From positions 2,109-66,108 of the forward strand of contig CAZMXG010000007.1 in the NCBI GenBank assembly GCA_964570175.1: a stretch of DNA of 64,000 nucleotides, in the 5' to 3' direction. Shown here piece after piece: positions 51-64,000 of the stretch. The notes below the pieces were generated by a model. The model was not told the origin of the DNA, did no database searches, and was given only the letters and a program-made list of their open reading frames with translations. How positions within the stretch are numbered: the stretch's first letter is position 1; each line of letters starts with the position of its first letter. The translations under genes and the position numbers were made by a program. This DNA is from an uncultured Heliomicrobium sp. (GTDB lineage: Bacteria; Acidobacteriota; Blastocatellia; RBC074).

Positions 51-1448
51 ATGCCGCCGCAGCCGGAGGAAGTCCCTGAATTTACCAAGACTAATTGCAA
101 ATCCTGTGGCGCAGAAGCCAAACCATATTCACGATTTTGCGAAGCTTGCGGCAGCAATCTTGTTGGCACCAAGTCAAACACAGTGGAAACCGTGGCTTCC
201 ACTGTGTCGCAGCCAAGTCAGGCAGAATCATTGCCCGTAAACCGCAAAAAACCTGAGCACACCTACCAGCCTTCCCCGACAATCTTTGAGCCTCGCTCGC
301 TTTCCGAATCTGATAAAAAGCCTGCTGCACATGAGCCTAAAATGTCTGACGCCTTGAATCATCGCACAGACAGTCTTTCCTCATCAGAATTGCCAGACTC
401 TGGAAATTTGGTTCTGGAATCTGGCACGCCTGCGGCAACAATATCTGACTCTTCTGGAAAACTTGGAACCGCCACTCACTTACCGACTGTATCGGAAGAG
501 AATGGCTCGCAGCCAAAAACTGTGGTTACGCCTTTGCCTCCATTTGGTGGTGAATTTCGCACCAAACAATCAGGCGTTCTCGCCGAATCCCAAACGCATG
601 GCAAACGCGCCCTGTTACAAACTTCTGTATTTTTTGTGCTGGCTTTATTGCTCATTTTGTTTGTGTATTGGTGGTTTAATCGAGATTTCAAAGTTGGAAT
701 TGATGGTAATTCCTCATCGCAACCTTCTACGGCGCAGCCCGGAGCGTCATCCACTTCGAACACGAACAAGCTCACGGTTGCTACAAGCAAAAATGGGCTG
801 GAAAACATGGCATTCATTCCTGGCGGCAAGCTGGATATGGGACGCAATAATGGTGATGAGTATGAGACTCCGGTTCACGCTGTAACAGTCAATCCCTTTT
901 ATATGGATCGCACGGAAGTGACGAATGAAGAGTATCAATTGTTTGTCACAGCAACCGGACATAGGCCGCCTCCTCATTGGCGAGGCGGCAAGTTCCCCTT
1001 GAATGAAGCGAAACTTCCTGTCGTGAATGTTTCCTGGGATGATGCCAATGCTTATGCTCAATGGATTGGGAAACGATTGCCAACAGAAGAGGAATGGGAA
1101 TTTGCCGCTCGTGGATCAGACGGCAGAATTTATCCTTGGGGAAATTCCTGGAACACAGCCAATGCAAATGCGGGCAAGGAACCGGGTGGGAGCATTAGTA
1201 AGGTTGGAAGTTTCCCCAATGGAGCCAGTCAATTTGGAATCATGGATTTGTGCGGCAACGTTTGGGAATGGACCTCAAGCAGCTTGGTCAATTACGCGGA
1301 CCAAAAAGAAATTGCTCCCGGAAAAGTTATTCGAGGCGGCGCTTACGATACTCCAAGCAAGCGGGCGACAGCTACTTACAGAGGTGTATTACCATCGGAT
1401 CGGTTACGCGATAAAACAGGATTTCGTCTGGTAAAGGACGCGAAATAA
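51..1448 (+). CDS. N-terminal zinc-ribbon / single TM / C-terminal FGE-sulfatase (SUMF1-like) domain protein
   Basis: N-terminus CKSCGAEAKPYSRFCEACGSNL (CxxC...CxxC zinc ribbon). Hydrophobic helix VFFVLALLLILFVYWWF. C-terminal 250 aa has FGE/SUMF1-type motifs (MAFIPGGKLDMG..., VNVSWDDANAYAQWIGKRLPTEEEWEFAARG, RGGAY). Confidence 0.6.
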   Translation: MPPQPEEVPEFTKTNCKSCGAEAKPYSRFCEACGSNLVGTKSNTVETVASTVSQPSQAESLPVNRKKPEHTYQPSPTIFEPRSLSESDKKPAAHEPKMSDALNHRTDSLSSSELPDSGNLVLESGTPAATISDSSGKLGTATHLPTVSEENGSQPKTVVTPLPPFGGEFRTKQSGVLAESQTHGKRALLQTSVFFVLALLLILFVYWWFNRDFKVGIDGNSSSQPSTAQPGASSTSNTNKLTVATSKNGLENMAFIPGGKLDMGRNNGDEYETPVHAVTVNPFYMDRTEVTNEEYQLFVTATGHRPPPHWRGGKFPLNEAKLPVVNVSWDDANAYAQWIGKRLPTEEEWEFAARGSDGRIYPWGNSWNTANANAGKEPGGSISKVGSFPNGASQFGIMDLCGNVWEWTSSSLVNYADQKEIAPGKVIRGGAYDTPSKRATATYRGVLPSDRLRDKTGFRLVKDAK

Positions 1449-43896: not shown

Positions 43897-46070
43897 CTAT
43901 AAATATTCCCGATCTTCATAACACCAGCCCCATTCTTCACCGGGTACCAAAGATTTGATCAGCGGATGAGCCATCCGCTGATGGTGTGCAGTGGCGTGTT
44001 TATTTTTTGATGAATCGCAACAGCCGACGTGACCGCAGGTCAGGCACAATCGCAAATGCACCCAGGTGTCGCCTGAAATCAGGCATTCTTCACAGCCCCG
44101 CGCGCCGGGCACTACCGGGCGGATTTGGTCAAGGTGGGAACAAACGCTTTCTGAAACGGTTGGGGTGAACCTAACAGTCGTTTCGGTATCCACCGTAAAG
44201 CTGACGTTCTGTGGTTGCGGCAGGGAATTCCCTTCGTCGGACTTTTCTTTTCTCACCGGCATGGAGCATTGCGCCATCTTGTCCAAATGAACCTGGCAAA
44301 CGACGGGCGGTGTTTCGCCTTCTGCCGGTTGATGCAGCAAAGCGGCATATCCGCCGCTGCGAATCACTTTTTCGTTGGCTTCGATTTGTTCTGTCGGGAT
44401 TTCGTAATGCTCCATGACTTCCGTGAAAATGCGGGTGATGCTTTCCATCTCTTCGGCAATCGCACTATCCACACCGGCTTCAATCAGCGGACGCGCATCG
44501 CTGATGTAGCGCGTTCGAACGACGATCCGCATTTCCGGATTTAGCGTTTTAGCGACAGCCACAACACGATGCGTCATCGCCGGGTCGTCATCGGCAATCA
44601 CCATCATCCGTGCTCGCTCAACTCCGGCGTGTTCCAGAATGTTCCGTTTGCTATAATCGCCGCGCAACACGTTCAAGCCCGCCGCTTCGGCTTCGTTCGC
44701 GCCCCCTGGACTAAGCGTCGTGATAATGTAAGGAATGCCCGACCCGCTCAAGACGTGAACCAATCTGCGCGCCGCTTGCCCGTACCCTGCCACAATCACG
44801 TGATCATCTAAGTCCAGGAGTGGTTCTGGCAGCACGGTAGCTTCCATTCCGGCGATGATTCTGGCTGTGGTTTTCTTTTGAATCTTTCCCGCCAGCCGCG
44901 AACCGATCTGCATCAGAAACGGCGTCACAACCATCAGCACCACCGTTCCCGCGATAAACGCCTGCGAACCGGCAGCGTCCATCCCCGCAGGCGTCAACCC
45001 CACTTCACGCCCGGCACGTTCCAGCACAAAGGAAAATTCGCCAATTTGCGCCAGCATCAGCGCTGAAGCCGCCGTCACCGGCAATTTGTAGCCAAGCGCT
45101 CGCACGCTCAAACCTGTTGTTATGATCTTGATCAACAACGTCGCCGCAATGACTGCCAACGCCAATGGCAGATTCATTACCAGAAAGCGCAAATCCAACA
45201 GAATGCCGACCGAAACGAAAAAGATCGCGCTGAACAAAATCTGCAACGGCATGATTTCGCCCAAGGCGTGATGGCTGAACCGGCTTTCGCTGACCAGCAA
45301 CCCGGCAAGAAATGCGCCCAGCGATAGGCTGACTCCGGCCAAACTGGTCAAGTAAGCCGTGCCGAAACAAATGGCGATGACCGTCAACAGAAACAATTCC
45401 GGTGAACAGGTTTCGGCGACTTTTTCCAAAATCTTCGGCATCAGTTTGCGCGCAAAAAACAGCACCAGAAAAATGATGGCCAGCGCTTTGCCTAATGCCC
45501 AGACGATTCCAAGCGCCGAACCTCCTGTACCGCTGAGCATCGGAACCAGCAAGACCATGACGATGATCGCCAGGTCTTGGAAAATCAGCAGCCCCAGTCC
45601 AACCTGTCCCTGTTCGCTATTTGTTTCGCCCCGGTCGCCCAGCACTTTCAGGACGATGGCCGTGGAACTGAGTGCCACCAGAAAGCCTGTGAACAGCCCT
45701 GCGCGCCAATTGACCCCAAACAGTGTCAACAGCCCCATTGTCGCCAGCGAAGCCAGCACCACCTGAAGCCCGCCGCCGACAAAGATCAGACGCTTGATGC
45801 TGGCCAGTTTTTCCAGGCTGAATTCAATACCGATGGTGAACAGCAGCAAAATGACGCCGATTTCGGCGGCGTTATCTACCAGTTCACGATTACTGACCAA
45901 CCCCAACGCGTGGGGCCCGATCAACACACCAGCCAATAGAAAGCCGACAATCGGCACCAGCCGCAACCGAAAACTGATGTACGCGATGACTGCACCCGCA
46001 ACCATCAGGGCAACGGCATCTGTCAGGTAAGCCGGAACCGTTCCGGCTGCAAAGATTGTCGGCAAGCTCA
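43897..46070 (-). CDS. CPA2-family cation:proton antiporter (Kef-type) fused to TrkA-N/TrkA-C and a C-terminal UBP-type zinc finger
   Basis: 12-TM Na+/H+-exchanger domain. Rossmann TrkA-N (HVIVAGYGQAARRLVHVL). C-terminal zf-UBP-like CxxC...CxxCGHVGCC...H...H segment (GCEECLISGDTWVHLRLCLTCGHVGCCDSSKNKHATAHHQRMAHP). Start set at the MSLPTI ATG at 46070. Confidence 0.7.
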
Positions 46071-46324
46071 TCGTCAAAAATTTTTCCTTTGTTGAATGCG
46101 TTTGTCGTGACCGCATTCGATCATGCCTTAGCTTTCCCACGCTCGGCAACGAAGAACTCTGCCACTTCTATTGAAACACCGGCACCAACTTACGCCACAG
46201 TCCGCGCATAATCTGTACGGCAACAGACTCACCCTTTCTTGGTTTCTGATCACTGCGGACTTAAACTGCCAACGCCTCTTTGGTTCGTCAAAACCTTTCT
46301 ATTAACCATTCAGAGGGTATTTCG

Positions 46325-49210: not shown

Positions 49211-49319
49211 CACAGAAAAACTTCACTCGGGAATTCGCACTTTTCCCTGCTGAGAAGCGCGAATCTTGCCATTCGCCTTGCACTCGCGTTACAACTCGAA
49301 TCCGAAGGGTACGCGAACA

Positions 49320-50501
49320 ATGGGCACAAGCTGGAATAATCTTTTTCTCCGCACCCGCAACGGCTATTGGTTTGCTGTTGCGGGCATTGCGTTGGTCACA
49401 GCAGCACTTGCTCCTTTCCACAACCGCTTCAGTTCAACAACTGTGGCGTTGGCGTTGTTGATTGTTGTTTTGTTTGCCGCGACCGGATGGGGAAGCCGAC
49501 CGGCTGCACTGGCGGCGATTTTGGGCGCGGCGTGCTTTAATTTCTTTTTCCTGCCACCGGTTCACACCTTCACCATTGCCGCCCCGCAAAACTGGACAGC
49601 GCTGGCAGCATTCCTGATTACAGCCGTCACTGCCGGACAGCTTTCGGCCCGTGCCAAACGCCGCGCTGAAGAAGCAGAAGCGGGCAAAGTGGAAATTGAA
49701 CGGCTTTACCGCGAATATCAGATCGCCGAAGAGCAAGCCAAACAAGCCGAAATTTTTCGTCAAAGCGAGCAGCTAAAATCTGCGCTGCTGGATGCTGTGA
49801 CACATGATCTGCGCACGCCGCTGACTTCTATCAAAGCATCCGTGACAACCTTGATCGCCGAAGAAAGTAGCGACGATCCCGTCAAGCTGGATCACGAAAG
49901 CCGTTTTGAGCTGCTGGAAATCATCAACGAAGAAGCCGACCGGTTAAATCGCTTTGTTGAACACATGGTGGATTTGGCAAAGCTGGAAGCAGGGGAATTG
50001 CAACTTCGCCGGCGATGGGGTTCGGTGGAAGAAATCATTGCCGCAGCCAGGGAACGCGCCAGCGCGTTAACCGCCAAACATCACGTTGAAGTTTTTGTTG
50101 AAACAGAACTGCCGTCAGTTCGTGTGGATGCGACGCTGCTGGCCGAAGTGTTGTATTCGCTGATTGACAACGCCGCAAAGTATTCTCCCATTGGTTCGAC
50201 GATTAAAATTGCCGCCAATCAAGCTGAAGGCGAGATGATTACCATTTCGGTTGAAGATCAAGGTTCTGGCGTTCCGGCCGAACTACGCCAACGGATCTTC
50301 GATAAATTCTTTCGTGTGACCAATGACAGCGCGCAACATCCAAGCGGTTTGGGAATGGGGTTGGCTATCGCTCGTGGAATTGTTGAAGCGCACGGCGGAT
50401 ATATCTGGATCGAAAGCGGCGCCAACGATCGCGGCACGCGGGTGAAACTGAGAATCCCAATTGGCGACGAAGACGCTGAAGGAGCCAACAGGCATGAGTG
50501 A
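49320..50501 (+). CDS. Sensor histidine kinase, KdpD C-terminal type (4-TM DUF4118 + HisKA + HATPase_c; no KdpD N-terminal/Usp domains)
   Basis: DUF4118-like TM block (NGYWFAVAGIALV...FNFFFLPPVHTF). H-box AVTHDLRTPLTSI. N/G boxes. ATG at 49320. Confidence 0.75.
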   Translation: MGTSWNNLFLRTRNGYWFAVAGIALVTAALAPFHNRFSSTTVALALLIVVLFAATGWGSRPAALAAILGAACFNFFFLPPVHTFTIAAPQNWTALAAFLITAVTAGQLSARAKRRAEEAEAGKVEIERLYREYQIAEEQAKQAEIFRQSEQLKSALLDAVTHDLRTPLTSIKASVTTLIAEESSDDPVKLDHESRFELLEIINEEADRLNRFVEHMVDLAKLEAGELQLRRRWGSVEEIIAAARERASALTAKHHVEVFVETELPSVRVDATLLAEVLYSLIDNAAKYSPIGSTIKIAANQAEGEMITISVEDQGSGVPAELRQRIFDKFFRVTNDSAQHPSGLGMGLAIARGIVEAHGGYIWIESGANDRGTRVKLRIPIGDEDAEGANRHE

Positions 50502-51189
50502 CGCGCAACGCATTCTGGTTGTAGACGACGAAACGCAGATTGTCCGCGTGTTGCGCCGAGGTTTGTCTGCGCGCGGTTATGAAGTCCAAACCGCCAGCAA
50601 CGGGGAAGAAGCGTTGGATGTTTTTTCGCAATGGCCAGCCGATCTGGTCATCACCGATCTTTCCATGCCGCAAATGGCCGGGCTGGAGCTTTGCCGCCGT
50701 CTGCGCAAATTGTCCCCTGTGCCAATCATTGTGCTTTCGGTTAAGGGAGAAGAACGAACCAAGGTTGAAGCGCTGGATTCCGGCGCTGACGATTACATCA
50801 CCAAGCCGTTTGGCATGGACGAACTGCTGGCGCGAATTCGCGCAGCGTTGCGGCGAACTACGGCTTCGACTTCACGCGAAATGACCGAGATCGAACTTGG
50901 CGATTTTCACGTTGACCTGGAAGCCAGAAGCGTCACCGTGCGAAACAATGGCGTGCATCTGACGCCCAAAGAATACGAATTGCTGGTTTACCTGATTCGT
51001 CATGCTGGCAAAGTCTTGACTCACCGCATTTTGCTCGGGGCGATTTGGGGCGGCGACTACACCGAACAAACTGAATATCTGCGTGTTTTTATTGGCCAGC
51101 TTCGCAAAAAGATCGAACCGGATCCGGCAAACCCTCGCTATATTTTGACTGAGCCTTGGATCGGCTATCGGTTTAGTCCCGATTCCTAA
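50494..51189 (+). CDS. OmpR/KdpE-family response regulator
   Basis: REC domain (ILVVDDE...DLVITDLSMP). C-terminal trans_reg_C wHTH (LTPKEYELLVYLIRHAGKVLTHRILL). Overlaps the HK stop by 8 bp. Confidence 0.85.
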   Translation: MSDAQRILVVDDETQIVRVLRRGLSARGYEVQTASNGEEALDVFSQWPADLVITDLSMPQMAGLELCRRLRKLSPVPIIVLSVKGEERTKVEALDSGADDYITKPFGMDELLARIRAALRRTTASTSREMTEIELGDFHVDLEARSVTVRNNGVHLTPKEYELLVYLIRHAGKVLTHRILLGAIWGGDYTEQTEYLRVFIGQLRKKIEPDPANPRYILTEPWIGYRFSPDS

Positions 51190-51316
51190 ATCTTGGAACG
51201 TAGCTTTGATTCCGAGGTGCCTTTTGTCCTCAACATTTTTTCCGCAAATTTTGGAAGTTTTTGAGCGCGCCGAGCGAATACCTCATGTCAGCCGACCGGC
51301 GGACGCTACAAAAACG

Positions 51317-51940
51317 ATGAGCAACGGAACGACATTCAGCGACCATGACTTGTTGCGGCGGATGATGGCTGGCGACGAAGAAGCGTTTACCGCGCTTTAT
51401 CGGCGGCATCAGGCCAACATTTATCGTTTCGCGTTGCTGATGAGCGGTTCGGCGACAGTTGCCGACGATGTGACGCAGGAAGTCTTTCTGGCTTTGATGG
51501 GCGGCGGCCAGCGTTACGATTCGGATCGTGGCCCGCTGACGGCCTTTCTGTATGGAATTGCCCGCAACCAGGTGTTGCGATCCCGTCGCCGTGAACGCGC
51601 TTGTGATCCTTTGGAAGAAGAAACAGAAGAGGCCGAGGCCGGTATCGTTCGAAGTTTGATTTCACAAGACGACCCGCTGGCTGAGATCGTGCGCGGCGAA
51701 ATCATCAGCGCTGTTCGCCAAGCAGTTTTAACGCTGCCCGCGCGTTACCGCGAAACCGTCGTGCTGTGCGACTTTCAGGAATTAAGTTACGCAGAAGCCG
51801 CTCTGGCGCTTAATTGCGCGGTTGGCACCGTGAGTTCGCGTTTGAACCGCGCGCGCGCAATGTTGGCTGAACGCTTGCGAGCGATGAATTCAGTGGACGC
51901 CAACGCGTTTGAAACTGCACCTGTGAGGTGTTTGGTATGA
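51317..51940 (+). CDS. ECF-subfamily RNA polymerase sigma-70 factor
   Basis: Region 2 (FTALYRRHQANIYRFALLMSGSATVADDVTQEVFL). Region 4 (YRETVVLCDFQELSYAEAALALNCAVGTVSSRLNRAR). Confidence 0.8.
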   Translation: MSNGTTFSDHDLLRRMMAGDEEAFTALYRRHQANIYRFALLMSGSATVADDVTQEVFLALMGGGQRYDSDRGPLTAFLYGIARNQVLRSRRRERACDPLEEETEEAEAGIVRSLISQDDPLAEIVRGEIISAVRQAVLTLPARYRETVVLCDFQELSYAEAALALNCAVGTVSSRLNRARAMLAERLRAMNSVDANAFETAPVRCLV

Positions 51941-52728
51941 ACTGTCAGGATTTCGAAATCACCATTTTGGGAATGGCGCGATCTCAACTGTTGGATGCCT
52001 CGGCTCGCCGCCAGACGCTTGCTCATATCGCGGAGTGTGCCGCCTGCGCTGACCGGCTTGCCGAACAACAGGCGCTGACGGCTGCCGTGAACGCTACGGC
52101 GAAAAACCTTCGGTATGAAGAAGCATCGGCGCATGTTGAACAATCTTTGCGGGCAGCTTTCCGGAAACAGTCAAAAGTTCCTACAGTGTTTCGCAGCACG
52201 CCGATTCGCACACAGCAATCGTCGAAACGGATTTTCGCCACTGTAGCAGCAATTGTTTTACTGATTTTCCTAGCCAGCTTGATTCGGCAATGGAGTACCG
52301 GCGGCTCAAACCAAAAATTGGCGGAAGCGCAACCCACGCCAACTACGCCTTCAAAGAATGATCTAAGTCAGAAATATCCGCCCACCCCGTCAGAGCAGAA
52401 ATTTGTCCGCCACGTTGGCAGTGAGCGACGCCACGTCCGACGACCTTTTCCCAAAGCGACAACCGAGTTGGAAGAAGCCATCACGGGATTTATCGCTTTA
52501 AGTAATGAAAGCCAGCTTGTCCCTTTGGAAAGCGGCCAGGTGCTGCGCGTTGAGCTTCCGACTTCGACGCTGATTTCCATGGGGCTGCCGATTACTGCGG
52601 AAGACGTTAGCAAACCGATCCTGGCAGATTTGCTGGTTGGCCAAGACGGAATGGCGCGCGCCATCCGCTTTGTTCGACCGATCGAAACCAATGAAACCGG
52701 CTCGTCTCAACAATTCAATAACAAGTGA
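51937..52728 (+). CDS. Anti-sigma factor (zf-HC2-type N-terminus, single TM)
   Basis: MNCQDFE...HIAECAACADRL is a Cys/His zinc motif typical of ECF anti-sigmas. TM helix IFATVAAIVLLIFLASLI. ATGA overlap with the sigma gene. Confidence 0.6.
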   Translation: MNCQDFEITILGMARSQLLDASARRQTLAHIAECAACADRLAEQQALTAAVNATAKNLRYEEASAHVEQSLRAAFRKQSKVPTVFRSTPIRTQQSSKRIFATVAAIVLLIFLASLIRQWSTGGSNQKLAEAQPTPTTPSKNDLSQKYPPTPSEQKFVRHVGSERRHVRRPFPKATTELEEAITGFIALSNESQLVPLESGQVLRVELPTSTLISMGLPITAEDVSKPILADLLVGQDGMARAIRFVRPIETNETGSSQQFNNK

Positions 52729-53730: not shown

Positions 53731-53937
53731 ACATTTGCCCAATCAGATTTCGCGCTCAGCTTCAACAGCCTCTGGATCGCCTACCTGCTGCACATTCCTA
53801 TTGATCATTCTCGCCGCTTTCACAGCAATCAGTTTCACCGAGCCAATTGACACCACGTGACGGGCAGCTACCATGCTCATCGTTCCTGCCAATTCCGGCA
53901 GGCGTTTTTTATAAAACCTTATTTCCTATAAAACTTT

Positions 53938-55551
53938 ATGAACGTACTTCTTGCCCTTCTTTTTTTGCAGGCTCCACCGCCAGAAAGCGTGGACAGACTG
54001 CTGGATCCGATTCTGCGTCACGGTCGAGACAACATCAGCTATCTGGCTTCGATGGATGGTTTCGATTGGACGATCGTTATCATGTATTTCACCATCCTGG
54101 CGCTGCTGGCTATTTTGGGCGCTTACCGCATCCGAATGGTGTATCAGTTCTGGCGTTACCGAAACATCAAACCACACCCCAAACGCCAATTTGCCGAAAA
54201 CGAATTGCCGCACATTACGGTTCAGCTTCCGCTGTTCAACGAACTGTACGTCGTCGAACGCCTGGTGGAATCCGTCGTCAAACTGGATTACCCGCGCCAC
54301 TTGCTGGAAATCCAGGTGCTGGACGATTCGACGGATGAAACTGTCGGCATTGCGGCGGAAGTCGTCGAACGATTCAAACAACAAGGCTTCGACATTGTCC
54401 ACATTCATCGAACCGACCGAACCGGCTTCAAAGCAGGCGCACTAGACAAAGGCATGAAAGTCGCCAAAGGGAAATTGATGGCGATTTTTGACGCCGACTT
54501 TACGCCCAGGCCCGACACTTTGAGGAAGATGGTGGATTTTTTCAGCGACGAAAAAGTCGGCATGGTGCAAATGCGCTGGGGGCACATCAATGCGAATTAC
54601 TCTTTGCTGACACGCATTCAGGAAGTGTTGCTGGATGGCCATTTCGTTGTGGAACAAACTTCGCGCAATCGCACCGGCGCGTTTTTCAACTTTAACGGAA
54701 CCGCCGGAATGTGGCGACGTGAAGCCATTGATTACAGCGGCGGCTGGCAACACGACACGTTGACCGAAGACACCGACCTGAGTTTTCGCGCTCAATTGAT
54801 GGGCTGGAAGTTTGTGTATCTGCTGGATGAAGAAGTTCCGGCGGAATTGCCTGTCGAAATGAATGCGTTCAAGGCGCAGCAGCGTCGCTGGGCAAAGGGC
54901 TTGGTGCAGGTCGGCCTGAAGCTGATGCCGCGCATCTGGCATCATCCGGACCTGACCTGGCAGCAAAAGGTGGAACTTTTTTTCCGCTTGTTTGGTAACT
55001 GCGCCGCGATGTTGATGATCGTACTGAGCGTTTTGCACATTCCGGTTTTAATCGTTCGGTTCAATCAGGGAATGTTCCAGATGCTGCTGTTCGATACACC
55101 ACTGATGATTTTTGCCACGTTTTCGGTCGTCAGCTTTTACGGCACGGCCATCCGGTATCGGTATCCAAACGAAAAATGGCGGCTGTGGCTGATTCCCATG
55201 GCAATGGCAATGGGCATCGGGCTGGTTTTTTCGAATACACGCGCTGTGTTGGAAGCCTTGTTCGGTGTTGAATCCAGCTTTGTCCGCACGCCGAAATACA
55301 ACGTCGAATCGAGCAAGGACAACTGGCTGCAAGTGGCCAAGAAGTACAAACGCAAAGGCGGATTGCTGCCGTTCATTGAATTGGCTTTTGCGCTGTATTT
55401 TGTTGGCGCTGTTTATTACGCAATCCGTTCGAACATTTATGCGACAATTCCGTTTCTCATGATCTTCCTGTTGGGTTACGGGTACATGGCAATGATGTCG
55501 TTGTTTCAAGGACGGGTGCGAAAACTGCTTAACGCGTTTCGTCGCAGTTAA
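53938..55551 (+). CDS. Family 2 glycosyltransferase, processive CESA-like membrane synthase
   Basis: GT-A motifs (VLDDSTDET; FDADF; TEDTDLSFR). QRRWAKG is the QxxRW motif. N-terminal TMs and 4 C-terminal TMs. Confidence 0.75.
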   Translation: MNVLLALLFLQAPPPESVDRLLDPILRHGRDNISYLASMDGFDWTIVIMYFTILALLAILGAYRIRMVYQFWRYRNIKPHPKRQFAENELPHITVQLPLFNELYVVERLVESVVKLDYPRHLLEIQVLDDSTDETVGIAAEVVERFKQQGFDIVHIHRTDRTGFKAGALDKGMKVAKGKLMAIFDADFTPRPDTLRKMVDFFSDEKVGMVQMRWGHINANYSLLTRIQEVLLDGHFVVEQTSRNRTGAFFNFNGTAGMWRREAIDYSGGWQHDTLTEDTDLSFRAQLMGWKFVYLLDEEVPAELPVEMNAFKAQQRRWAKGLVQVGLKLMPRIWHHPDLTWQQKVELFFRLFGNCAAMLMIVLSVLHIPVLIVRFNQGMFQMLLFDTPLMIFATFSVVSFYGTAIRYRYPNEKWRLWLIPMAMAMGIGLVFSNTRAVLEALFGVESSFVRTPKYNVESSKDNWLQVAKKYKRKGGLLPFIELAFALYFVGAVYYAIRSNIYATIPFLMIFLLGYGYMAMMSLFQGRVRKLLNAFRRS

Positions 55552-55585: not shown

Positions 55586-56173
55586 ATGTTCTGTCCGAAA
55601 TGCGGGTCGAACCAGGGTGATGGCAAAAAGTTTTGCACAGTTTGCGGAACCAACTTGCTCATCGTTTCGCAGGCTTTGACAGGACAACTTGCTCCGCCGC
55701 AACCTGCATTTCACCATTTGCCACCCGCTGCCATCTTCAATAGGGAAATGGAGCGCCAGAAAGAAATGCGCTCCGGAATTACGATGGCGGTGCTAGGCGG
55801 CAGCTATCTTGTTTATCAAATCATCAATTTTATTTTTTCCGCGCCCTTTAATGGCTGGCGTTCCCCATTTGGCTTTGGCAGCTTCATTGCATTCATTGTT
55901 TGCGCAGTTGGCATTTCCAAAATTATTAGCGCGCGAGTGATTGCCGATGCGCCCTCAACGACATCCGGCTTATCCAGCGCGATGTATCCGGCGACGGAAC
56001 CCGGTCAATCACCGCTTCCATCTCCGAGCGTGTCGGCTCAGGCAGCCCTGCCCAAACCGGTTTTTTCTGCTGCCCCTCCGATGCATCCGTCTGCTCCACA
56101 TACCAATGAGCTTGATCCCGTTCAAACAACAGTAAGCGTGACGGAAGAAGAAACGAAACACTTGGGTCGCTAA
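55586..56173 (+). CDS. Zinc-ribbon membrane protein (paralog 1)
   Basis: [24 protein letters not shown] zinc ribbon. Two predicted TM helices. Pro/Ser-rich C-terminus. Confidence 0.5.
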
Positions 56174-56189
56174 ATCCAACACCAGTTCG

Positions 56190-56807
56190 GTGAAAAGGAG
56201 AACTATGTTTTGCCCAAATTGTGGAACGGAAACCCGCGAAGCGATCAAGTTTTGTAAAAAGTGCGGGACGAATTTAAAGCGGGTGCAAGGCGTGATGAGC
56301 AAAGGCGGGGCCGGGTCCAGCGCCAACCAGTCAGCCGACTGGAACCAGTGGTGGATCGAAGAGCATCAGGAAAAGCGAGAACAAAACAAGAAGAAACTGC
56401 CCGAAGAAAAACGGCTGGAAGAAATTAAAACCGGTGTCATTACCGCCAGTGTCGGCCTGGCAATATCTATTTTCCTGAATCTTTTTTTCGAAGCCATCGC
56501 CAATGCTTCAGGCGGCCCTGAAGCAATCATCCTGCAACGCATCTGGGCAGTCGGATTGATCCCGCTTTTCATTGGGCTGGCCTTTGTTTTCAATGGCCTG
56601 TTCATCAGCAAACGCATTGTTGAATTGAAAAAGCAGCATCAAGATAATATGCCGCAACCGATGTTTGCGCCGGTTCCCAATACTTCGCCGGTTGCGCAAT
56701 TGAACGAAGCGGATCAACCCCAGCTTGCTGATTACAGCATTACCGAACCGACAACGACCAGGCTGCGCGAGCCCGTGCCCGTTTCATCGCCACGCGACAC
56801 GAACTGA
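56190..56807 (+). CDS. Zinc-ribbon membrane protein (paralog 2)
   Basis: MFCPNCGTETREAIKFCKKCGTNL. Charged linker. Two TM helices. Confidence 0.5.
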   Translation: MKRRTMFCPNCGTETREAIKFCKKCGTNLKRVQGVMSKGGAGSSANQSADWNQWWIEEHQEKREQNKKKLPEEKRLEEIKTGVITASVGLAISIFLNLFFEAIANASGGPEAIILQRIWAVGLIPLFIGLAFVFNGLFISKRIVELKKQHQDNMPQPMFAPVPNTSPVAQLNEADQPQLADYSITEPTTTRLREPVPVSSPRDTN

Positions 56808-56854
56808 TAAAGTTGTAAAACTGAAATCATAGAATCCCCAGGAGGACACTGTTA

Positions 56855-57352
56855 ATGTTTTGCACCCGATGTGGTACTCAAAACCCCGATGATGCAGGTT
56901 TTTGCCGCAACTGTTCCAGTCCGCTGACGCGCCCTGTTAGCCACTCAGGGCAACAGACTGCTCCGCAATCGAACCAACCAACATCAGGCTCTTATGCCAA
57001 TCCATCTTCATCGCAATCCCCCTATCCGGGTTATCAGGGACCGCCTGTGTACCAAAGTTCATATGCCAATCAACCGATAACGCAACAAAGCGGTGCCAGC
57101 GGACGCGCAATCGCCTCCATGGTTTTAAGTATTCTTGGCTTGGTGATGTGCGGTTTCTTGACCAGTATTCCAGCGATGATTTTGGGCAAGATGGAACTGA
57201 ACGACATCAAATTGGGCAAAGCTCCCAAAGCGGGTGAAACACTGGCCAAAATTGGATTTTATGTTGGAATCGCCGGAACCGTAATTTCTTGTCTCGCTGG
57301 TATTGCGGGCGCTGCCTTGTGGATTATCGGCGCGGCCAATTCATTCAATTGA
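56855..57352 (+). CDS. Zinc-ribbon protein with C-terminal DUF4190-like two-TM domain (paralog 3)
   Basis: MFCTRCGTQNPDDAGFCRNCSSPL. Q/S/P/Y-rich linker. IASMVLSILGLVMCGFLTSIPAMILGKMELNDIKLGKAPKAGETLAKIGFYVGIAG is DUF4190-like. Confidence 0.55.
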   Translation: MFCTRCGTQNPDDAGFCRNCSSPLTRPVSHSGQQTAPQSNQPTSGSYANPSSSQSPYPGYQGPPVYQSSYANQPITQQSGASGRAIASMVLSILGLVMCGFLTSIPAMILGKMELNDIKLGKAPKAGETLAKIGFYVGIAGTVISCLAGIAGAALWIIGAANSFN

Positions 57353-57462
57353 AAACAAACCAGGAAAAGTTAAATCACGTAGTTGTCGCAACCGGCGAGT
57401 CACCTTCTGATCGTGACTCGCCGGTTGCGTTTTCGCGCAATGACCAAATCACGTATCTGGCG

Positions 57463-57855
57463 ATGACTGCGGTGGCTGGTTTCACATTGATCCTCGCCAG
57501 AATGCTTACTCCAGCGAGTGCTGGTTACGGAACTCATGAACAATTGGGTTTGCCACCTTGCCTGTTTTTCAAACTGACTGGCCTGCCTTGCCCAAACTGT
57601 GGATTGACAACCAGCTTTGCTCATTCGGCCAGATTTCATTTTTACCAGGCCTTCATCGCACAGCCCTTCGGCCTAATTGCTTTTTGCCTGACAGTTGCAA
57701 GCATTCCATCCTTCGTTTTTCTGATCCGGCGACGAATTTCATGGGCTGAATTCATCCGCGCCAAAGGCTTCGATCACCTGATTTACACTCTGATCGCAGT
57801 GTACTTGTTGGGCTGGATTTATAAGATTGCCGTGATCAAATTGACCGGAAACTGA
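57463..57855 (+). CDS. DUF2752-like membrane protein
   Basis: [13 protein letters not shown] (CPxCG motif) within a 4-TM protein. Start uncertain. The ORF-track start at 57289 overlaps the upstream gene. Confidence 0.5.
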
Positions 57856-57940: not shown

Positions 57941-59626
57941 ATGAAAACGGCTGCATTGCTGTTTTGCTTTTTGCTGCTGACACCCAATATCGCTATGCCA
58001 AAAACTCAAGACAACTTGCCAAAATCTCGCGCTGAACTGACCAACTACGAAGAAACCAGCCGCTACGAAGACGTCATGCGATTTATCGCCGATCTTCAAA
58101 AAATGACCGACAAGATACGCGTTGAATCCTTCGGTAAAACCGAAGAAGGCCGCGAACTGCCGCTGATGATTTTTGCCAATCCGCCGATTTCTCAACCACG
58201 CGAAGCGCGCGCCAGTGGCAAACCTGTCGTTTTCATTCAAGCAAACATTCACGCCGGGGAAGTGGAAGGGAAGGAAGCGATGCTGCATTTGTCGCGGCGC
58301 ATTGTTGCCGGCGATCTGAAACCCTTGTTGGACAAACTGGTGATTCTGGTTGCGCCAATTTACAACGCAGACGGCAACGAAAAAATCAGCGTCAATAACC
58401 GCACAGCTCAGAACGGGCCCATCGGCGGAGTCGGCACGCGCGAAAACGCCAAAGCCATGGATTTGAACCGAGATTACATGAAGCTGGAATCGCCTGAAGC
58501 CAACGCGCTGGTTGGTTTGATGAATCGCTGGGACCCGCATCTGACCGTTGATCTGCACACAACAAACGGCTCCTATCACGGTTATCATCTGACGTACGCA
58601 CCAACGCTGAATCCCAATGCTGATGCTAGGCTGATTGCCTTCGGTCGAAACAAAATGCTTCCGGCTATCACGCGCACGCTGCTGGTGAAGCACAAATTCC
58701 GCACTTACTTTTACGGCAACTTCGCAACCAAAGAGCGCATAAACCGCGAAGTGAATACTTTCGAGATGCAGCGCGAAGGCCGTGCGGCTCAACCCGCTGA
58801 CAAACCCGAAACCAAAATCTGGCGCACGTTCGATCACAAACCAATGTTCGGCAATAACTATGTTGGGTTGCGCAACCGGCTGACGATTCTTTCCGAAGCC
58901 TACAGCTATCTGGATTTCAAAGGCCGCATCGCCGTTACCGAAGCCTTTGTCGAAGAAATTTTCAAATACTCTGCGCTGCACGCCGCCGAAATCACTTCAC
59001 TGATCAACCGAGTGGATGCCGATGCTTTTCGCGGCAAGCTCCCGGCAAAAGGCGTAGCCTTTGAAATCAAACCACTGGACAAACCCGTCAGTATCCTGGT
59101 CGGCGAAGTGAAGAAGGTCAAAAATCCAAAGAACGGCAAAGATATGACCGTGATGATCGAAGACAAATTCACGCCGACGCCAATGCCGGATTATGGAGTG
59201 TTCGCTGCTACGAAAAGCAACGAAGTTCCACGAGCCTATATTTTCAAAAACGAAACCGGCTTGAAAACTATAATCGCAAAGCTGCAAGCGCACGGCATTG
59301 CCATTGAAGAGTTGACCGAGTCGCTCGACACCGAAGGTGAAAGCTTCGTCATTGATTCGGTCAACAAAGCTGCTCGCGCCTTCCAAGGCCACGCCGAAGT
59401 TAAACTCAAAGGCCACACTCAAAAAGAAACTGTCAATTTCCCTGCCGGTTCAATTCTGGTTCGCACAACCCAGCCACTAGCATCGCTGATTTTTTACCTG
59501 CTGGAAGCTGAAAGCGACGATGGATTTGTGCGTTGGAATTTTCTGGATTCGTATTTGGAAAAAGGGAAGCCCTATCCGATTTACAAACTAACAGGCGAGA
59601 TAAAAGCAGCAAGCAAATTACGCTGA
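57941..59626 (+). CDS. Secreted M14-family zinc carboxypeptidase
   Basis: Signal peptide. [10 protein letters not shown] (HxxE zinc site). Downstream His/Glu positions and overall 560-aa architecture. Confidence 0.7.
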
Positions 59627-60815: not shown

Positions 60816-63800
60816 TCAAAATGGAATCAGCTTAATCAAGCTCAATAGGTCTATAAATCTTTCTAAAGTCATAGGAGATTGAGGGCCAATTTCATAATGG
60901 CCCGGAGAACCTTTCGGAAAAATCTCTAACTCAGGAGAAACTGTATTGAGGTCAATTTTATATGGCCCCCCATATTTAATAATATTTGGGTCATTTGGAT
61001 TCTGATTAACTGACATTCCTTTTCCTGGTTGAACCATCCCATTTTTAACTTTTATATCAATGCCAGGACGAGGACTATTTAGCTCCGGCCCACCTCGATA
61101 TAACGGAGGGCCATTATATTTACATTGATTATGCACCAGCACACTCAGTGTTGATACATAGTAAGTATGTGCTTCTGCCACCTCGAAGTTGTAGACTTTG
61201 AACTCACCACTTCGTCGCTTTATCGAGTCAACTTTGGCGACTGTTGTGTTCTTTGTCAGTAATTGTGAGCCCTGCTCCAATTGCCCAGCAGCGACCCATC
61301 CTTTTCCTATCACCCAAAATGGATGTTCTGGCGTTGCAGTAATGGTTTCTTTGCCAATGCGAATGTCTACAACTTCTGTAGCTGTTCGCTCAAAGACCTG
61401 CACCACCTTTTGTACACGGACAACAGATCCATTTTCTCCTTGTTCAGGATCAGAGGACAAGACTTTATCTCCGACTTTGATGTCTTCGATGCTTTTCTCG
61501 CCATCTGGTGTCTGCACTTTTGTGCCGGCGACAAAACAGTAATTGGCAGGATATCTACTACCAAACCTGCCGCCCAGAAATCCTCCTAACAATCCTCCTA
61601 GCAACCCAGCTCGTTCTATCTCGCACATTTGGTTCCAGCGTCTCAATGCTCTTGCCAACTGCACCACACCAACTACTGCTAGCGTTACGCCGATAACTGG
61701 AATTGCGACGGGAAACAGAGGCGCAAGTTCAATCATCATTAACGACATTCCGCCTGCAACATAAGCGCTTTCCGCCGCGCTTCTCCCAAATTCTCCCCAT
61801 TCCTCTCTTCCCCAACCCTGCAATCCTATGGGGTCAAACAGGTTCGTTGGGCTGTTGTAAACATAGGAGTACAGATTGGTATCTCGGCCAGCCAATCCAA
61901 TCGGGTCTTCGCTTAGGAATCGCCCTTGCTGAGGATCGTACCAGCGCGCACGATAATGCATCAGCCCAGTAGCAACATCTCGCTCTCGCCCTGTGAAGCC
62001 ATAACGTGTTCTTACACTTCCAGCGCTTGCGCCAAAAGCATCATATTGCTGTAGGGATTCAACCAGGCCCCCAGCAGCATTCGTCAATCCGAGCGTGCTT
62101 CCCAGGTGATCTTGCAAGAAGTACATCGTTCCCCAGGTTGAATCACTCTGCCTTAACTTGTCGTCAATGCTGGCCCCGTTCAGGTAATCAACTGCGCTCC
62201 CGTTAGAGCGGTCAATTACTGTTTCCAATCCATCGTACTGATAAGTCGTTGTCGTTCCATTGACCGAACTGCTAATGCGTCTTCCGGTTGCGTCATATCC
62301 ATAATCGGCGGTTTGTCCGTTGGGTAATGTTGCGCGAGTCAGTCTGCCACGAGCATCCCATTGATAGCCGGTTGTGCCTGAAGCATCTATTTTGGATGTC
62401 GTTTGCCCTTCCTGATTGAAGCTGTAATTAGCTGCTCCGAATTGCCCAATTCGATTGGCGGCATCTGCCGAGGTTGCTGTCTTGCTCTGAGGAGTTGCCA
62501 GCGCAGAAGCCAATGACGTGACTTTGTTGATTTCATTGTCCAAGTTGAATTCATACTGCAAGTCTTCCAACGTTGTGCTAGCGTTTGTATGAGTCAATCG
62601 CTTCAATCGGCTGACTTCATCATATAGGAATGCAGTGGTGACGTTATTCGGTCTTTGCAAGCTGGTTCGTCGGGAAAGCGTGTCGTAACCGTAGGTGAAG
62701 GTTTCACTTCCTTGCGAGATCGTCTGTAATCTTCCAAATGTGTCATAGCCATACGCCACGGGCAGTCGGTCTGCTGCCGTCATGGAATTCCGCTGATTGG
62801 CGTTGTTATAGCTGTAACTGACGACTCCAAGTGGGGTTGTTTCTGATGTTAGCCGGTTCGCGTTGTCGTATTGCCAGGTAATCGCACCATTCGCATCGCC
62901 GATGCTTGTGGGGCGGCCTGCCGTGTCATATTGATAAGTTACGGTGGCATCAGCATAAGTGACCGTGACAGGGCGATTGATATTGTCATAACTGACCGTT
63001 GTTCGCCGCCCCATGCGATCAGTCCTGGCAATGACGTTGCCCACAGGGTCATATTCCGCTGTCACCTTTCGCCCCAAGGGATCACTTCGGCTTGTCAGCC
63101 TGAATAACTCATCGTAGCCAAACGTCAAAGTGTTGTTGCGCTGATCTTTCAGCGAAATCACGTTTCCTCGATGGTCATAGATAAGGTTGATGATATTGCC
63201 CAACCCATCAGTGATCGTCTGCTGTTGGCCGCGAGCATCATAGCTATACCGCATTGTTCGCCCCGAAGCCGCAATCACTTTTACTAATTGATCTGCGGCA
63301 TCGTATTCCCACTTATAGGGTTTATCGTTGGATTCATTCAGTGGGCGTTTGCCAGTTACTAGATGATTCTTCGCATCATAAGTGAAAGTCCAGGTCTTCA
63401 GATTCGCATCGGTTACGCTCAGCCGGTTGTCGTTCTCATCATAGGTATAGCTGTAAGTTGGATTTCCTGTCTCATTAACCGGATCATTAACGGGCTTCCT
63501 TACATTCAAGACTCTATCCAGATTGTCATAACGCATTCTAGTCTGTCGTCCGAGCGGATCGGTTACCAACAAGAGATTACCAGCTAGGTCGTACTGAAAT
63601 GTTGTTGAATGATTGAGCGCATCGGTATGCGAAATGATGTAGCCATTCACATCGTATCCATACGATGTCGCATGGTTGAGCCCATCAGTAATGGCGGCCA
63701 GTCGCCCCAAGCTATCATAAGCATAAGCCGTCGTCTGGTTCAGCGCATTGGTGACGCTGACTAGGTTGCCTTTGGGCGTGATAGTGTTTGACGATACCGT

Positions 63801-64000
63801 GTCGTAACCGTAGCTGGTTACTTTGTTGCGCTTGTCGGTGTAACTGGTGACCTGACTGAGCACCGGATCGTAGCTGCTGGCCGGGCTGAAGGAGCGGTAC
63901 TGCCAGCTTTCGGTTTGACCCAACCGGTCTTTCACCGTCAGGACGTTGCCGCGATTGTCGTAAGTCTTTTCGGTTTCCGGACAACCGCAAGGCCCCGTAC
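60816..64000 (-). CDS. RHS / YD-repeat polymorphic toxin (partial; N-terminus beyond window end) with Hint domain and C-terminal toxin tip
   Basis: Dozens of YD repeats (YDxxGRL, TYQYDxxGN...). RHS core terminal motif DPIGLAGRDTNLYSYVYNSPTNLFDPIGL. Hydrophobic linker. Hint module CFVAGTKVQTPDG...VLVHNQ. About 105-aa tip. The listed start at 63935 is a GTG and the reading frame stays open to 63990 (KTYDNRGNVLTV...), so the gene continues upstream of the window. Confidence 0.85.
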   Translation of the reverse strand, partial: TGPCGCPETEKTYDNRGNVLTVKDRLGQTESWQYRSFSPASSYDPVLSQVTSYTDKRNKVTSYGYDTVSSNTITPKGNLVSVTNALNQTTAYAYDSLGRLAAITDGLNHATSYGYDVNGYIISHTDALNHSTTFQYDLAGNLLLVTDPLGRQTRMRYDNLDRVLNVRKPVNDPVNETGNPTYSYTYDENDNRLSVTDANLKTWTFTYDAKNHLVTGKRPLNESNDKPYKWEYDAADQLVKVIAASGRTMRYSYDARGQQQTITDGLGNIINLIYDHRGNVISLKDQRNNTLTFGYDELFRLTSRSDPLGRKVTAEYDPVGNVIARTDRMGRRTTVSYDNINRPVTVTYADATVTYQYDTAGRPTSIGDANGAITWQYDNANRLTSETTPLGVVSYSYNNANQRNSMTAADRLPVAYGYDTFGRLQTISQGSETFTYGYDTLSRRTSLQRPNNVTTAFLYDEVSRLKRLTHTNASTTLEDLQYEFNLDNEINKVTSLASALATPQSKTATSADAANRIGQFGAANYSFNQEGQTTSKIDASGTTGYQWDARGRLTRATLPNGQTADYGYDATGRRISSSVNGTTTTYQYDGLETVIDRSNGSAVDYLNGASIDDKLRQSDSTWGTMYFLQDHLGSTLGLTNAAGGLVESLQQYDAFGASAGSVRTRYGFTGRERDVATGLMHYRARWYDPQQGRFLSEDPIGLAGRDTNLYSYVYNSPTNLFDPIGLQGWGREEWGEFGRSAAESAYVAGGMSLMMIELAPLFPVAIPVIGVTLAVVGVVQLARALRRWNQMCEIERAGLLGGLLGGFLGGRFGSRYPANYCFVAGTKVQTPDGEKSIEDIKVGDKVLSSDPEQGENGSVVRVQKVVQVFERTATEVVDIRIGKETITATPEHPFWVIGKGWVAAGQLEQGSQLLTKNTTVAKVDSIKRRSGEFKVYNFEVAEAHTYYVSTLSVLVHNQCKYNGPPLYRGGPELNSPRPGIDIKVKNGMVQPGKGMSVNQNPNDPNIIKYGGPYKIDLNTVSPELEIFPKGSPGHYEIGPQSPMTLERFIDLLSLIKLIPF

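Follow-up and report, generated by a model that had tools for sequence, protein, structure and literature searches.

A conserved block of small zinc-ribbon and DUF2752 membrane protein genes beside a GT2 synthase gene in Blastocatellia (Acidobacteriota)

The stretch of DNA considered in the present analysis (hereafter referred to as the window) is 64 kb long and is derived from contig CAZMXG010000007.1, deposited under the name of an uncultured Heliomicrobium sp. and placed by GTDB in the class Blastocatellia of the Acidobacteriota. On its + strand, four short co-directional genes, designated A, B, C and D, occupy positions 55586 to 57855 between a gene for a GT2 glycosyltransferase and a gene for an M14 zinc carboxypeptidase. 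An earlier note on the window had described the four as three paralogous zinc-ribbon proteins together with a DUF2752-like protein, placed directly downstream of the GT2 gene and forming a dedicated small-membrane-protein module. Open reading frame (ORF) listing confirms four tandem small genes at this place, and strong synteny in related genomes backs their description as a dedicated module. The block is a real, non-random and conserved operon-like unit in Blastocatellia, and combines known, as yet uncharacterised families in a new way.

The GT2 gene (53938..55551, 537 aa) encodes a synthase of the membrane-embedded, processive type resembling BcsA and PgaC, as judged from Pfam matches and an alignment with BcsA. 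It is succeeded by gene A (55586..56173, 195 aa), gene B (56205..56807, 200 aa), gene C (56855..57352, 165 aa) and gene D (57349..57855, 168 aa), and the final gene of the conserved block, all of it on the + strand, is that of the M14 carboxypeptidase (57941..59626, 561 aa). The gaps between GT2 and A, A and B, and B and C are 34, 31 and 47 nt, respectively, C and D overlap by 4 nt (TTGA), and the stop codon of D is separated from the start of the M14 gene by 85 nt. Shine-Dalgarno sequences are present for A, B and C and absent for D. The ORF of gene B opens at GTG 56190; its start was set at ATG 56205 because this codon is preceded by AAGGAG and yields the MFCP start and the length of all the orthologues. 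A consensus scan of the 246-nt gap 5' of the GT2 gene located a promoter-like match of the sigma-70 type (TTGACA-16-TACCAT, 53847..53874, + strand, 10 of 12 matches), which is a possible operon start; the match is weak evidence, since shuffled sequence has at least as many sigma-70-like sites as the region. Comparison of the six gene products with the PADLOC models gave no match to known anti-phage defence systems, and a reading of the block as a defence system was discarded on this basis.

The products of genes A, B and C begin with MFCPKCGS, MFCPNCGT and MFCTRCGT, respectively, and each carries an N-terminal Cys4 zinc ribbon (nt 55592-55645, 56211-56264 and 56861-56914) followed, past a linker, by two hydrophobic segments in the hydropathy profile. 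The ribbons score 25.7, 27.9 and 33.3 bits against Zn_Ribbon_1 (PF13240), all above the gathering cut-off of 25 bits; together with the scores reported below, this bears out the domain calls of the earlier note for the zinc ribbon, DUF4190, DUF2752 and GT2. The four Cys residues, which are predicted metal ligands, are conserved among the orthologues, being retained in 116 of 117 homologues of A, 119 of 120 of B and 83 of 84 of C in the form CxxC-x10-CxxC, with a span of always 18 residues. Only five CxxC-x8-20-CxxC strings occur in the ORFs of at least 100 aa in the six frames of the window, four of them at the heads of A, B, C and the first gene of the window (51-1448), and the ribbon-headed cluster is therefore more than would be expected by chance. 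The pattern MFCPxCG...FCxxCG is a general signature of this type of ribbon, and near-identical N-termini alone are no evidence of recent duplication. A Cys4 ribbon followed by a membrane anchor is also found in TcaA of Staphylococcus aureus, to which B gives a faint NCBIfam match (E 0.038); the similarity covers the ribbon only, and unlike TcaA, which has one transmembrane (TM) segment and a large outside domain, A, B and C have a hairpin and no outside domain. The first gene of the window, to which the earlier note had attributed the same zinc-ribbon and TM architecture, does possess a ribbon head (20.7 bits, below the cut-off) and, past a long linker, a TM segment. The hairpin is missing, and the single TM segment is joined to a body formed by an FGE-sulfatase (formylglycine-generating enzyme-like) domain with weaker matches to the EgtB/SenA-type and GldK-type families.

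Past its ribbon, protein A consists of a linker, a two-helix hairpin and a Pro-rich tail bearing a 10-residue motif (nt 56135-56164), and protein B of charged helices, a DUF6249-like hairpin and a disordered tail bearing the motif SITEPTTTRL (nt 56736-56765). The two proteins align from end to end with 25% identity, and their alignment with the orthologues displays a common ribbon, a Gly-containing hairpin and the C-terminal motif; judged by these alignments, A and B are full-length paralogues. With protein C, the similarity stops after the first ~26-40 residues, which make up the ribbon, and the threefold paralogy envisaged earlier thus holds for A and B and not for C. The AlphaFold model of B passes from the zinc ribbon through two helices in the cytoplasm to a pair of long TM helices and ends in the disordered tail. 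On the assumption of a cytoplasmic ribbon, the two-helix hairpin returns the tail to the side of the ribbon, and the tail motif would then be a cytoplasmic short linear motif. Docking of the motif in cis onto the ribbon was considered and rejected, the tail of the B model being disordered (predicted local distance difference test, pLDDT, below 50). The hairpin of A and B is likely to be related to DUF6249 (PF19762): B scores 26 bits against a cut-off of 33 and does not pass, A has no match, a related member (P0379) passes with 33.7 bits, and many orthologues carry a precomputed weak match. DUF6249 proteins of the Bacteroidota figure in the literature only as neighbours, of a sigma factor in B. 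fragilis and of an ABC efflux system in P. gingivalis, and a literature search on the family found nothing functional.

Searches at E <= 1e-3 yielded 201 homologues of A and 315 of B, all the named ones from Blastocatellia or other acidobacterial metagenome-assembled genomes (MAGs), those of A being full-length down to 43% identity. A combined profile of A and B matched 9200 proteins at E <= 1e-3 and 816 clusters at E <= 1e-10 among 1.84 billion representatives, counts that include multi-ribbon repeat proteins matching in the ribbon only; many of the listed matches are full-length proteins of ~165-250 aa. Full-length members of the family keep the ribbon, a two-helix hairpin with weak similarity to DUF6249 and a near-C-terminal S-V-T-E-x-T-T-x-x-L motif, and both ribbon and tail motif are invariant among those aligned. 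The motif is present in 111 of 117 orthologues of A and 111 of 120 of B, and its S, T, E, T, T and L are invariant in 31 distant members that had been picked for carrying it; a literature search did not find the motif in any paper of the library covered. In soil metagenome contigs (L092, L112, L115, L116, L122, L145, L153 and L161), distant relatives of A and B occur as tandem pairs, which suggests that the family works as heterodimers. The neighbourhoods of this distant subfamily were collected by a metagenome scan with a narrow subfamily alignment and contain no kinase or FHA domain. Their recurrent neighbours (a MoaD-like protein, a cupin, a methyltransferase and an epimerase) were considered as a clue to partners and set aside as only lineage-specific.

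Protein C combines its ribbon with a low-complexity linker rich in P, Q, Y and G and a DUF4190 (CD225/dispanin-like) hairpin (nt 57107-57295), which scores 48 bits against DUF4190 (PF13828, cut-off 35) over residues 85-147. This plan is kept from Blastocatellia to Terriglobia, where the linker is made of PPPPGAYPPP repeats, and one Cys of the first hairpin helix (C99; 'CCGP' in Terriglobia) does not vary among the homologues of C. Among 21 homologues drawn from the two classes, 16 match DUF4190 and six match CD225, the family of the interferon-induced TM proteins, weakly (best E 0.003), and the C protein of the window shows no match to CD225 (PF04505) even at E <= 1. From its hairpin, C may be a bacterial relative of the dispanin superfamily, which it resembles through these DUF4190 and weak CD225 matches (other members being IFITM3, PRRT2 and bacterial DUF4190 proteins) and from which it differs in its N-terminal zinc ribbon, its P/Q/Y-rich linker and its constant pairing with DUF2752. 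In a comparison by eye, C and IFITM3 have in common a conserved charged loop, one Cys or a Cys-Cys pair within the first hydrophobic segment, and 'AK..(Y)LNI' at the start of the second helix. We know of no membrane-fusion role for CD225/dispanin-type proteins in bacteria. Bacterial relatives of the IFITMs have been documented (PMC4488726), and in eukaryotes CD225 proteins regulate membrane fusion and trafficking (PMC11730294).

Protein D passes the cut-off of DUF2752 (PF10825) with 43.3 bits against 27 and possesses the C-x9-CPxCG core of that family. The extended cluster H-x7-C-x9-C-P-x-C-G (nt 57535-57603) is invariant in all 83 homologues of D, as is the longer string G-T-H-x-x-L-G-L-P-x-C-x9-C-P-x-C-G-x-T-T. 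The invariant His of 'GTH' lies upstream of the Pfam model; unlike the family as modelled, the acidobacterial members thus add an N-terminal helix and this His, giving a possible His-Cys3 site. From its invariance, the His-Cys3 cluster is a probable metal site. A later His ('FAH') was rejected as the fourth ligand, being unconserved in Terriglobia, where the upstream His is kept. The resemblance of the Cys motif of D to a zinc-ribbon knuckle extends to the DNA level, since the DNA of the CPxCG knuckles constitutes a five-copy direct-repeat family (60-71% identity, window 55586-57617) with one copy in each of the two knuckles of A, one each in the first knuckles of B and C, and one in the CPNCG of D. 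The earlier description of D as a DUF2752-like CPxCG protein stands, and the four TM helices counted there are one possible topology: the hydropathy profile has three clear hydrophobic helices and interfacial helices bearing the Cys motif, and in the AlphaFold model (pLDDT 80.5) the motif occupies short helices, next to which an amphipathic helix (residues 82-104) is a possible, not a certain, membrane span. Comparison of the model with solved structures found none similar, with no likeness to DsbB or VKOR, and a tblastn search of plasmids with D gave no match. The literature library that was searched contains no paper on DUF2752 and a single, irrelevant mention of DUF4190.

Gene D most likely starts at TTG 57349, within a TTGA overlap with the TGA stop of C, and would encode 168 aa. 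This start was chosen on the basis of the orthologue alignment and of a conserved NTGA overlap of the stop and start codons of C and D, observed in 29 loci (TTGA in 13, ATGA in 12 and GTGA in four). The same evidence eliminates TTG 57289, from which the raw ORF (57289-57855) extends, and ATG 57463, the first in-frame ATG, 5' of which lie residues conserved in the orthologues ('FS.NDQ..Y'). Because D overlaps the stop of C and lacks a Shine-Dalgarno sequence, it is most likely translated by coupling to C. In metagenome contigs with the same sequence as the window (L001 and L002), gene calling passed over D, presumably because of its TTG start overlapping the stop of C and the missing Shine-Dalgarno sequence, and the exact protein is absent from the protein collection. 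An inverted repeat with a perfect 17-bp stem and a 9-nt loop (57387..57429, + strand), the only occurrence in the window, lies 38 nt into D, in the poorly conserved 5' part of its coding sequence; the fold around it (113 nt) has an energy of -41 kcal/mol (z = -3.9). Slightly altered versions of the repeat are present in L009 and L010, the two closest relatives, and it is absent in more distant ones. An intergenic terminator between C and D was ruled out, since the repeat is situated inside D, has a tail of only four T and is confined to these relatives; the hairpin may lower or uncouple the expression of D or mark a transcript 3' end.

The GT2 protein matches the Pfam families Glyco_tranf_2_3, Glycos_transf_2 and Glyco_trans_2_3, and when aligned to BcsA (5ej1) it keeps DDS, FDADF, TED (TEDTD) and QQRRW, corresponding to the D, DxD, TED and QxxRW motifs. 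By this alignment, it carries the full motif set of the processive beta-glycan synthases of the BcsA/PgaC/NodC/HAS type. Hydrophobic segments are found on both sides of the catalytic domain (residues 39-69, 345-401 and 474-524), and no PilZ domain is present. The best NCBIfam match is to PgaC_IcaA (118.8 bits, cut-off 422.3), followed by CelA (106 bits, cut-off 699.1); both equivalog scores are far below their cut-offs and do not point to a particular sugar product. The M14 protein scores 71 bits against Peptidase_M14 (cut-off 21.6) in a partial domain match (residues 47-182) and has an N-terminal hydrophobic signal-like segment (residues 1-19), from which it is predicted to be secreted.

The conservation of the block was examined in a D-anchored scan with one genome per GTDB species, in which 412 relatives were confirmed; the best 80 of the 412, all Acidobacteriota, were kept and, with three relatives fetched earlier, make up 83 non-redundant loci. 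The genes were scored on six-frame ORFs with hidden Markov models built from the orthologues. The complete order GT2-A-B-C-D-M14 is observed in 31 of the 83 loci, and partial versions in about 20: GT2-A-B-C-D in five, GT2-B-C-D-M14, A-B-C-D-M14 and B-C-D-M14 in three each, C-D-M14 in two, and six patterns in a single locus each, namely GA-CD-, GAB-D-, G--CDM, -ABCD-, ----DM and ----D-, where G and M stand for GT2 and M14 and a dash for a gene not found in the stretch read. The remaining 30 loci have C and D only and are nearly all labelled Terriglobia (Acidobacteriaceae, Terracidiphilus). Among the roughly 50 loci of the Blastocatellia type, the GT2 gene lies directly 5' of the small genes in about 42 and the M14 gene 3' of D in about 40. 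All eight contexts anchored on A (four, including the contig of the window) or on B (four), which are unbiased as to D and GT2, likewise have the succession GT2, (A), B, C, D, M14, A or C being left uncalled in some. The flanks of the block vary, with abhydrolase, beta-lactamase-fold or anti-sigma genes on the 5' side and PTPS, amidohydrolase or methyltransferase genes on the 3' side. The genes are thus syntenic in relatives with differing flanks. The block-bearing contigs L009, L010, L012, L018, L036 and L062, among others, are titled 'uncultured Heliomicrobium sp.' or 'Heliobacteriaceae', and from their gene content these titles look like mislabelled MAG taxonomy.

The conservation is layered, with C-D as an old core and A/B, GT2 and M14 as a further layer of the Blastocatellia-type loci, the only ones in which they were seen beside C-D. 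Genes C and D are adjacent in two acidobacterial classes, Blastocatellia and Terriglobia, at every locus readable at both ends, all of them acidobacterial, except L076, where no C-type ORF was detected 5' of D. For the pairing of DUF4190 with DUF2752, called widespread in the earlier note, the loci covered are all from the Acidobacteriota. In seven Blastocatellia relatives, DUF2752 is adjoined on its 5' side by a zinc-ribbon protein of ~165 aa with a TM2 hairpin, a third hairpin family under the same head, which is additional in five (L023, L027, L087, L030 and L172) and replaces the DUF4190 protein in two (L031 and L062). Zinc-ribbon hairpins of three different Pfam families thus gather around DUF2752. 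Directly after C-D, each of the 23 Terriglobia loci examined encodes a conserved protein of ~640 aa that combines zinc ribbons, Pro-rich stretches and a Peptidase_M48 domain and in one locus (L070:7384-9303) has REMGH where HExxH is expected; the peptidase encoded after D differs in Blastocatellia, being M14 there.

In the operons of PgaC-PgaD, the poly-N-acetylglucosamine synthase of E. coli, and of IcaA-IcaD, the gene of a processive GT2 precedes that of a small inner-membrane protein with two TM segments, and the activity of PgaC depends on PgaD, its partner in the complex (PMC8461298). By analogy, the preferred reading here, held with considerable reserve, is that the small proteins of the block may assist the GT2 synthase as an inner-membrane platform, in the part that PgaD has for PgaC. 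C and D would be made in fixed proportion and could represent an old, obligate membrane pair, in which DUF2752 would be the hub for a zinc-ribbon-headed hairpin protein of the DUF4190, TM2 or DUF6249-like type. In Blastocatellia, this platform and the A/B pair would be joined to the synthase, with the ribbon and the tail motif of A and B as cytoplasmic docking sites, and their role towards the GT2 protein would be accessory or regulatory (stabilisation, placement or gating), like that of the small two-TM proteins PgaD and IcaD towards PgaC and IcaA. The short gaps, the overlap of C and D, the synteny, the interchangeable TM2 partners, the ribbon, hairpin and tail motif common to A and B, the invariant cluster of D, the motifs of the GT2 protein and PgaC_IcaA as its best family match argue for a platform of this kind. 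The role in polysaccharide-associated sensing or assembly suggested in the earlier note is a conjecture from gene position.

Several points weigh against a platform for the synthase. The likeness of A and B to PgaD and IcaD is limited to size, two TM helices and a place after the GT2 gene; unlike PgaD, they have a zinc ribbon and a conserved tail motif, they have no sequence similarity to PgaD or IcaD, and a Pfam search with A-D at E <= 0.1 gave no match to either family. Unlike the Pga system, the block has no PgaA/PgaB-type genes, and the export or modification genes (porin, deacetylase) that would mark a polysaccharide pathway are missing from the cluster. The link with GT2 drawn in the earlier note is frequent, strong in one class and not obligatory: at least four loci (L025, L029, L031 and L058), with at least 5 kb read upstream, keep (A)/B-C-D(-M14) among unrelated neighbours and have no GT2 gene within 5 kb, one locus has it on the opposite strand, several have an extra gene between GT2 and A, and the C-D pair of Terriglobia has neither GT2 nor A/B in its surroundings. 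The distant A/B subfamily of the soil metagenomes likewise has no GT2, C, D or M14 gene in its vicinity. Synteny inside one class can partly reflect shared descent, and a platform does not account for the M14 protein.

About equally likely is that the small proteins constitute a self-contained membrane module, with C-D as its core and A/B added in Blastocatellia, which is independent of the synthase and might organise or remodel membranes in the manner of dispanin-type proteins, the GT2 and M14 genes being inherited neighbours. The persistence of C-D over two classes, without GT2 in Terriglobia, the B-C-D loci with no GT2 gene nearby, the occurrence elsewhere of A/B-type proteins alone or as tandem pairs, and the weak matches of C homologues to CD225, a family of eukaryotic fusion and trafficking regulators (PMC11730294), are all consistent with such independence; the GT2 gene lying directly 5' in most Blastocatellia-type loci and in every A- or B-anchored context while the outer genes differ weighs against it, as do GT2-A gaps of 3-35 nt in many genomes, which imply co-transcription. 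It is unlikely that A and B are envelope or membrane signal transducers, in which the hairpin would sense the membrane and the ribbon and tail would bind a cytoplasmic partner, such as an FHA protein after Thr phosphorylation or a sigma-factor-linked component. FHA domains prefer pT-x-x-L/I, and the invariant T and L of the tail, a short linear motif in a disordered segment, stand at a +3 spacing that would suit an FHA-domain ligand; DUF6249 proteins are, moreover, reported beside sigma-factor genes in Bacteroides. However, no kinase, FHA or sigma/anti-sigma gene is conserved beside the block or the distant family members, the pair of extracytoplasmic function (ECF) sigma and anti-sigma genes that the window has 5' of the block is not shared by its relatives, and the literature on the motif is silent.

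Two further readings centre on D. That it is a Cys-acting enzyme or chaperone, either a membrane thiol-disulfide oxidoreductase, should the CPxC face the periplasm, or a zinc-dependent modifier of the Cys of its hairpin partner, with the rest of the block secondary, appears very unlikely. Such an activity would agree with an invariant CPxC at a helix N-terminus accompanied by an invariant third Cys and His, with the invariant Cys in the first hairpin helix of the C homologues, and with a topology, permitted by the positive-inside rule, that places the Cys cluster in the periplasm; but metal binding is the classic function of a CPxCG knuckle and the neighbouring genes encode three zinc ribbons, the cluster would be cytoplasmic in a 4-TM topology that is just as good, and the D model resembles neither DsbB, VKOR nor any solved fold. 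A bolder conjecture, which we consider hardly more probable, is that DUF2752 is a zinc-dependent (His-Cys3) hub or enzyme in the membrane that recognises ribbon-headed hairpins of the DUF4190/CD225, TM2 and DUF6249-like types and assembles them or modifies the conserved Cys of a dispanin-type partner, giving rise to a bacterial membrane-organising machine that in Blastocatellia controls a glycan synthase.

All the small proteins of the block belong to Pfam-numbered families without a known function, and the A/B family comprises hundreds of clusters. The block therefore offers a testable setting, with a fixed pair (C-D), a likely hub (DUF2752) with interchangeable partners and a candidate client (GT2). 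If true, the link with the synthase would provide a new kind of small accessory subunit for bacterial glycan synthases; an action of C-D like that of eukaryotic CD225 proteins would open the bacterial side of the dispanin superfamily; and the conjectured DUF2752 machine would, in a single step, give bacterial dispanin relatives and three DUF families their first function. Should neither the synthase link nor the CD225-like action hold, what is left is a clearly delimited, conserved gene cluster from a soil phylum that has received little study.

Other features of the window were observed on either side of the block. Just 5' of it, at 49266-52728, are genes for a DUF4118 histidine kinase, an OmpR-type response regulator, the ECF sigma factor and an anti-sigma-like protein, a set that is not conserved in relatives. 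On the - strand, 60816-63935 is occupied by a 1039-aa ORF in which 13 RHS repeats accompany a PT-HINT (pretoxin Hint) domain, a polymorphic toxin gene, downstream of which ORFs of 109 and 240 aa on the same strand have no family match. Further upstream, also on the - strand, a 750-aa Na+/H+ exchanger (43897-46149) combines a TrkA_N domain with a zf-UBP zinc finger at its C-terminus (44.7 bits); zf-UBP is familiar mainly from the ubiquitin hydrolases of eukaryotes.

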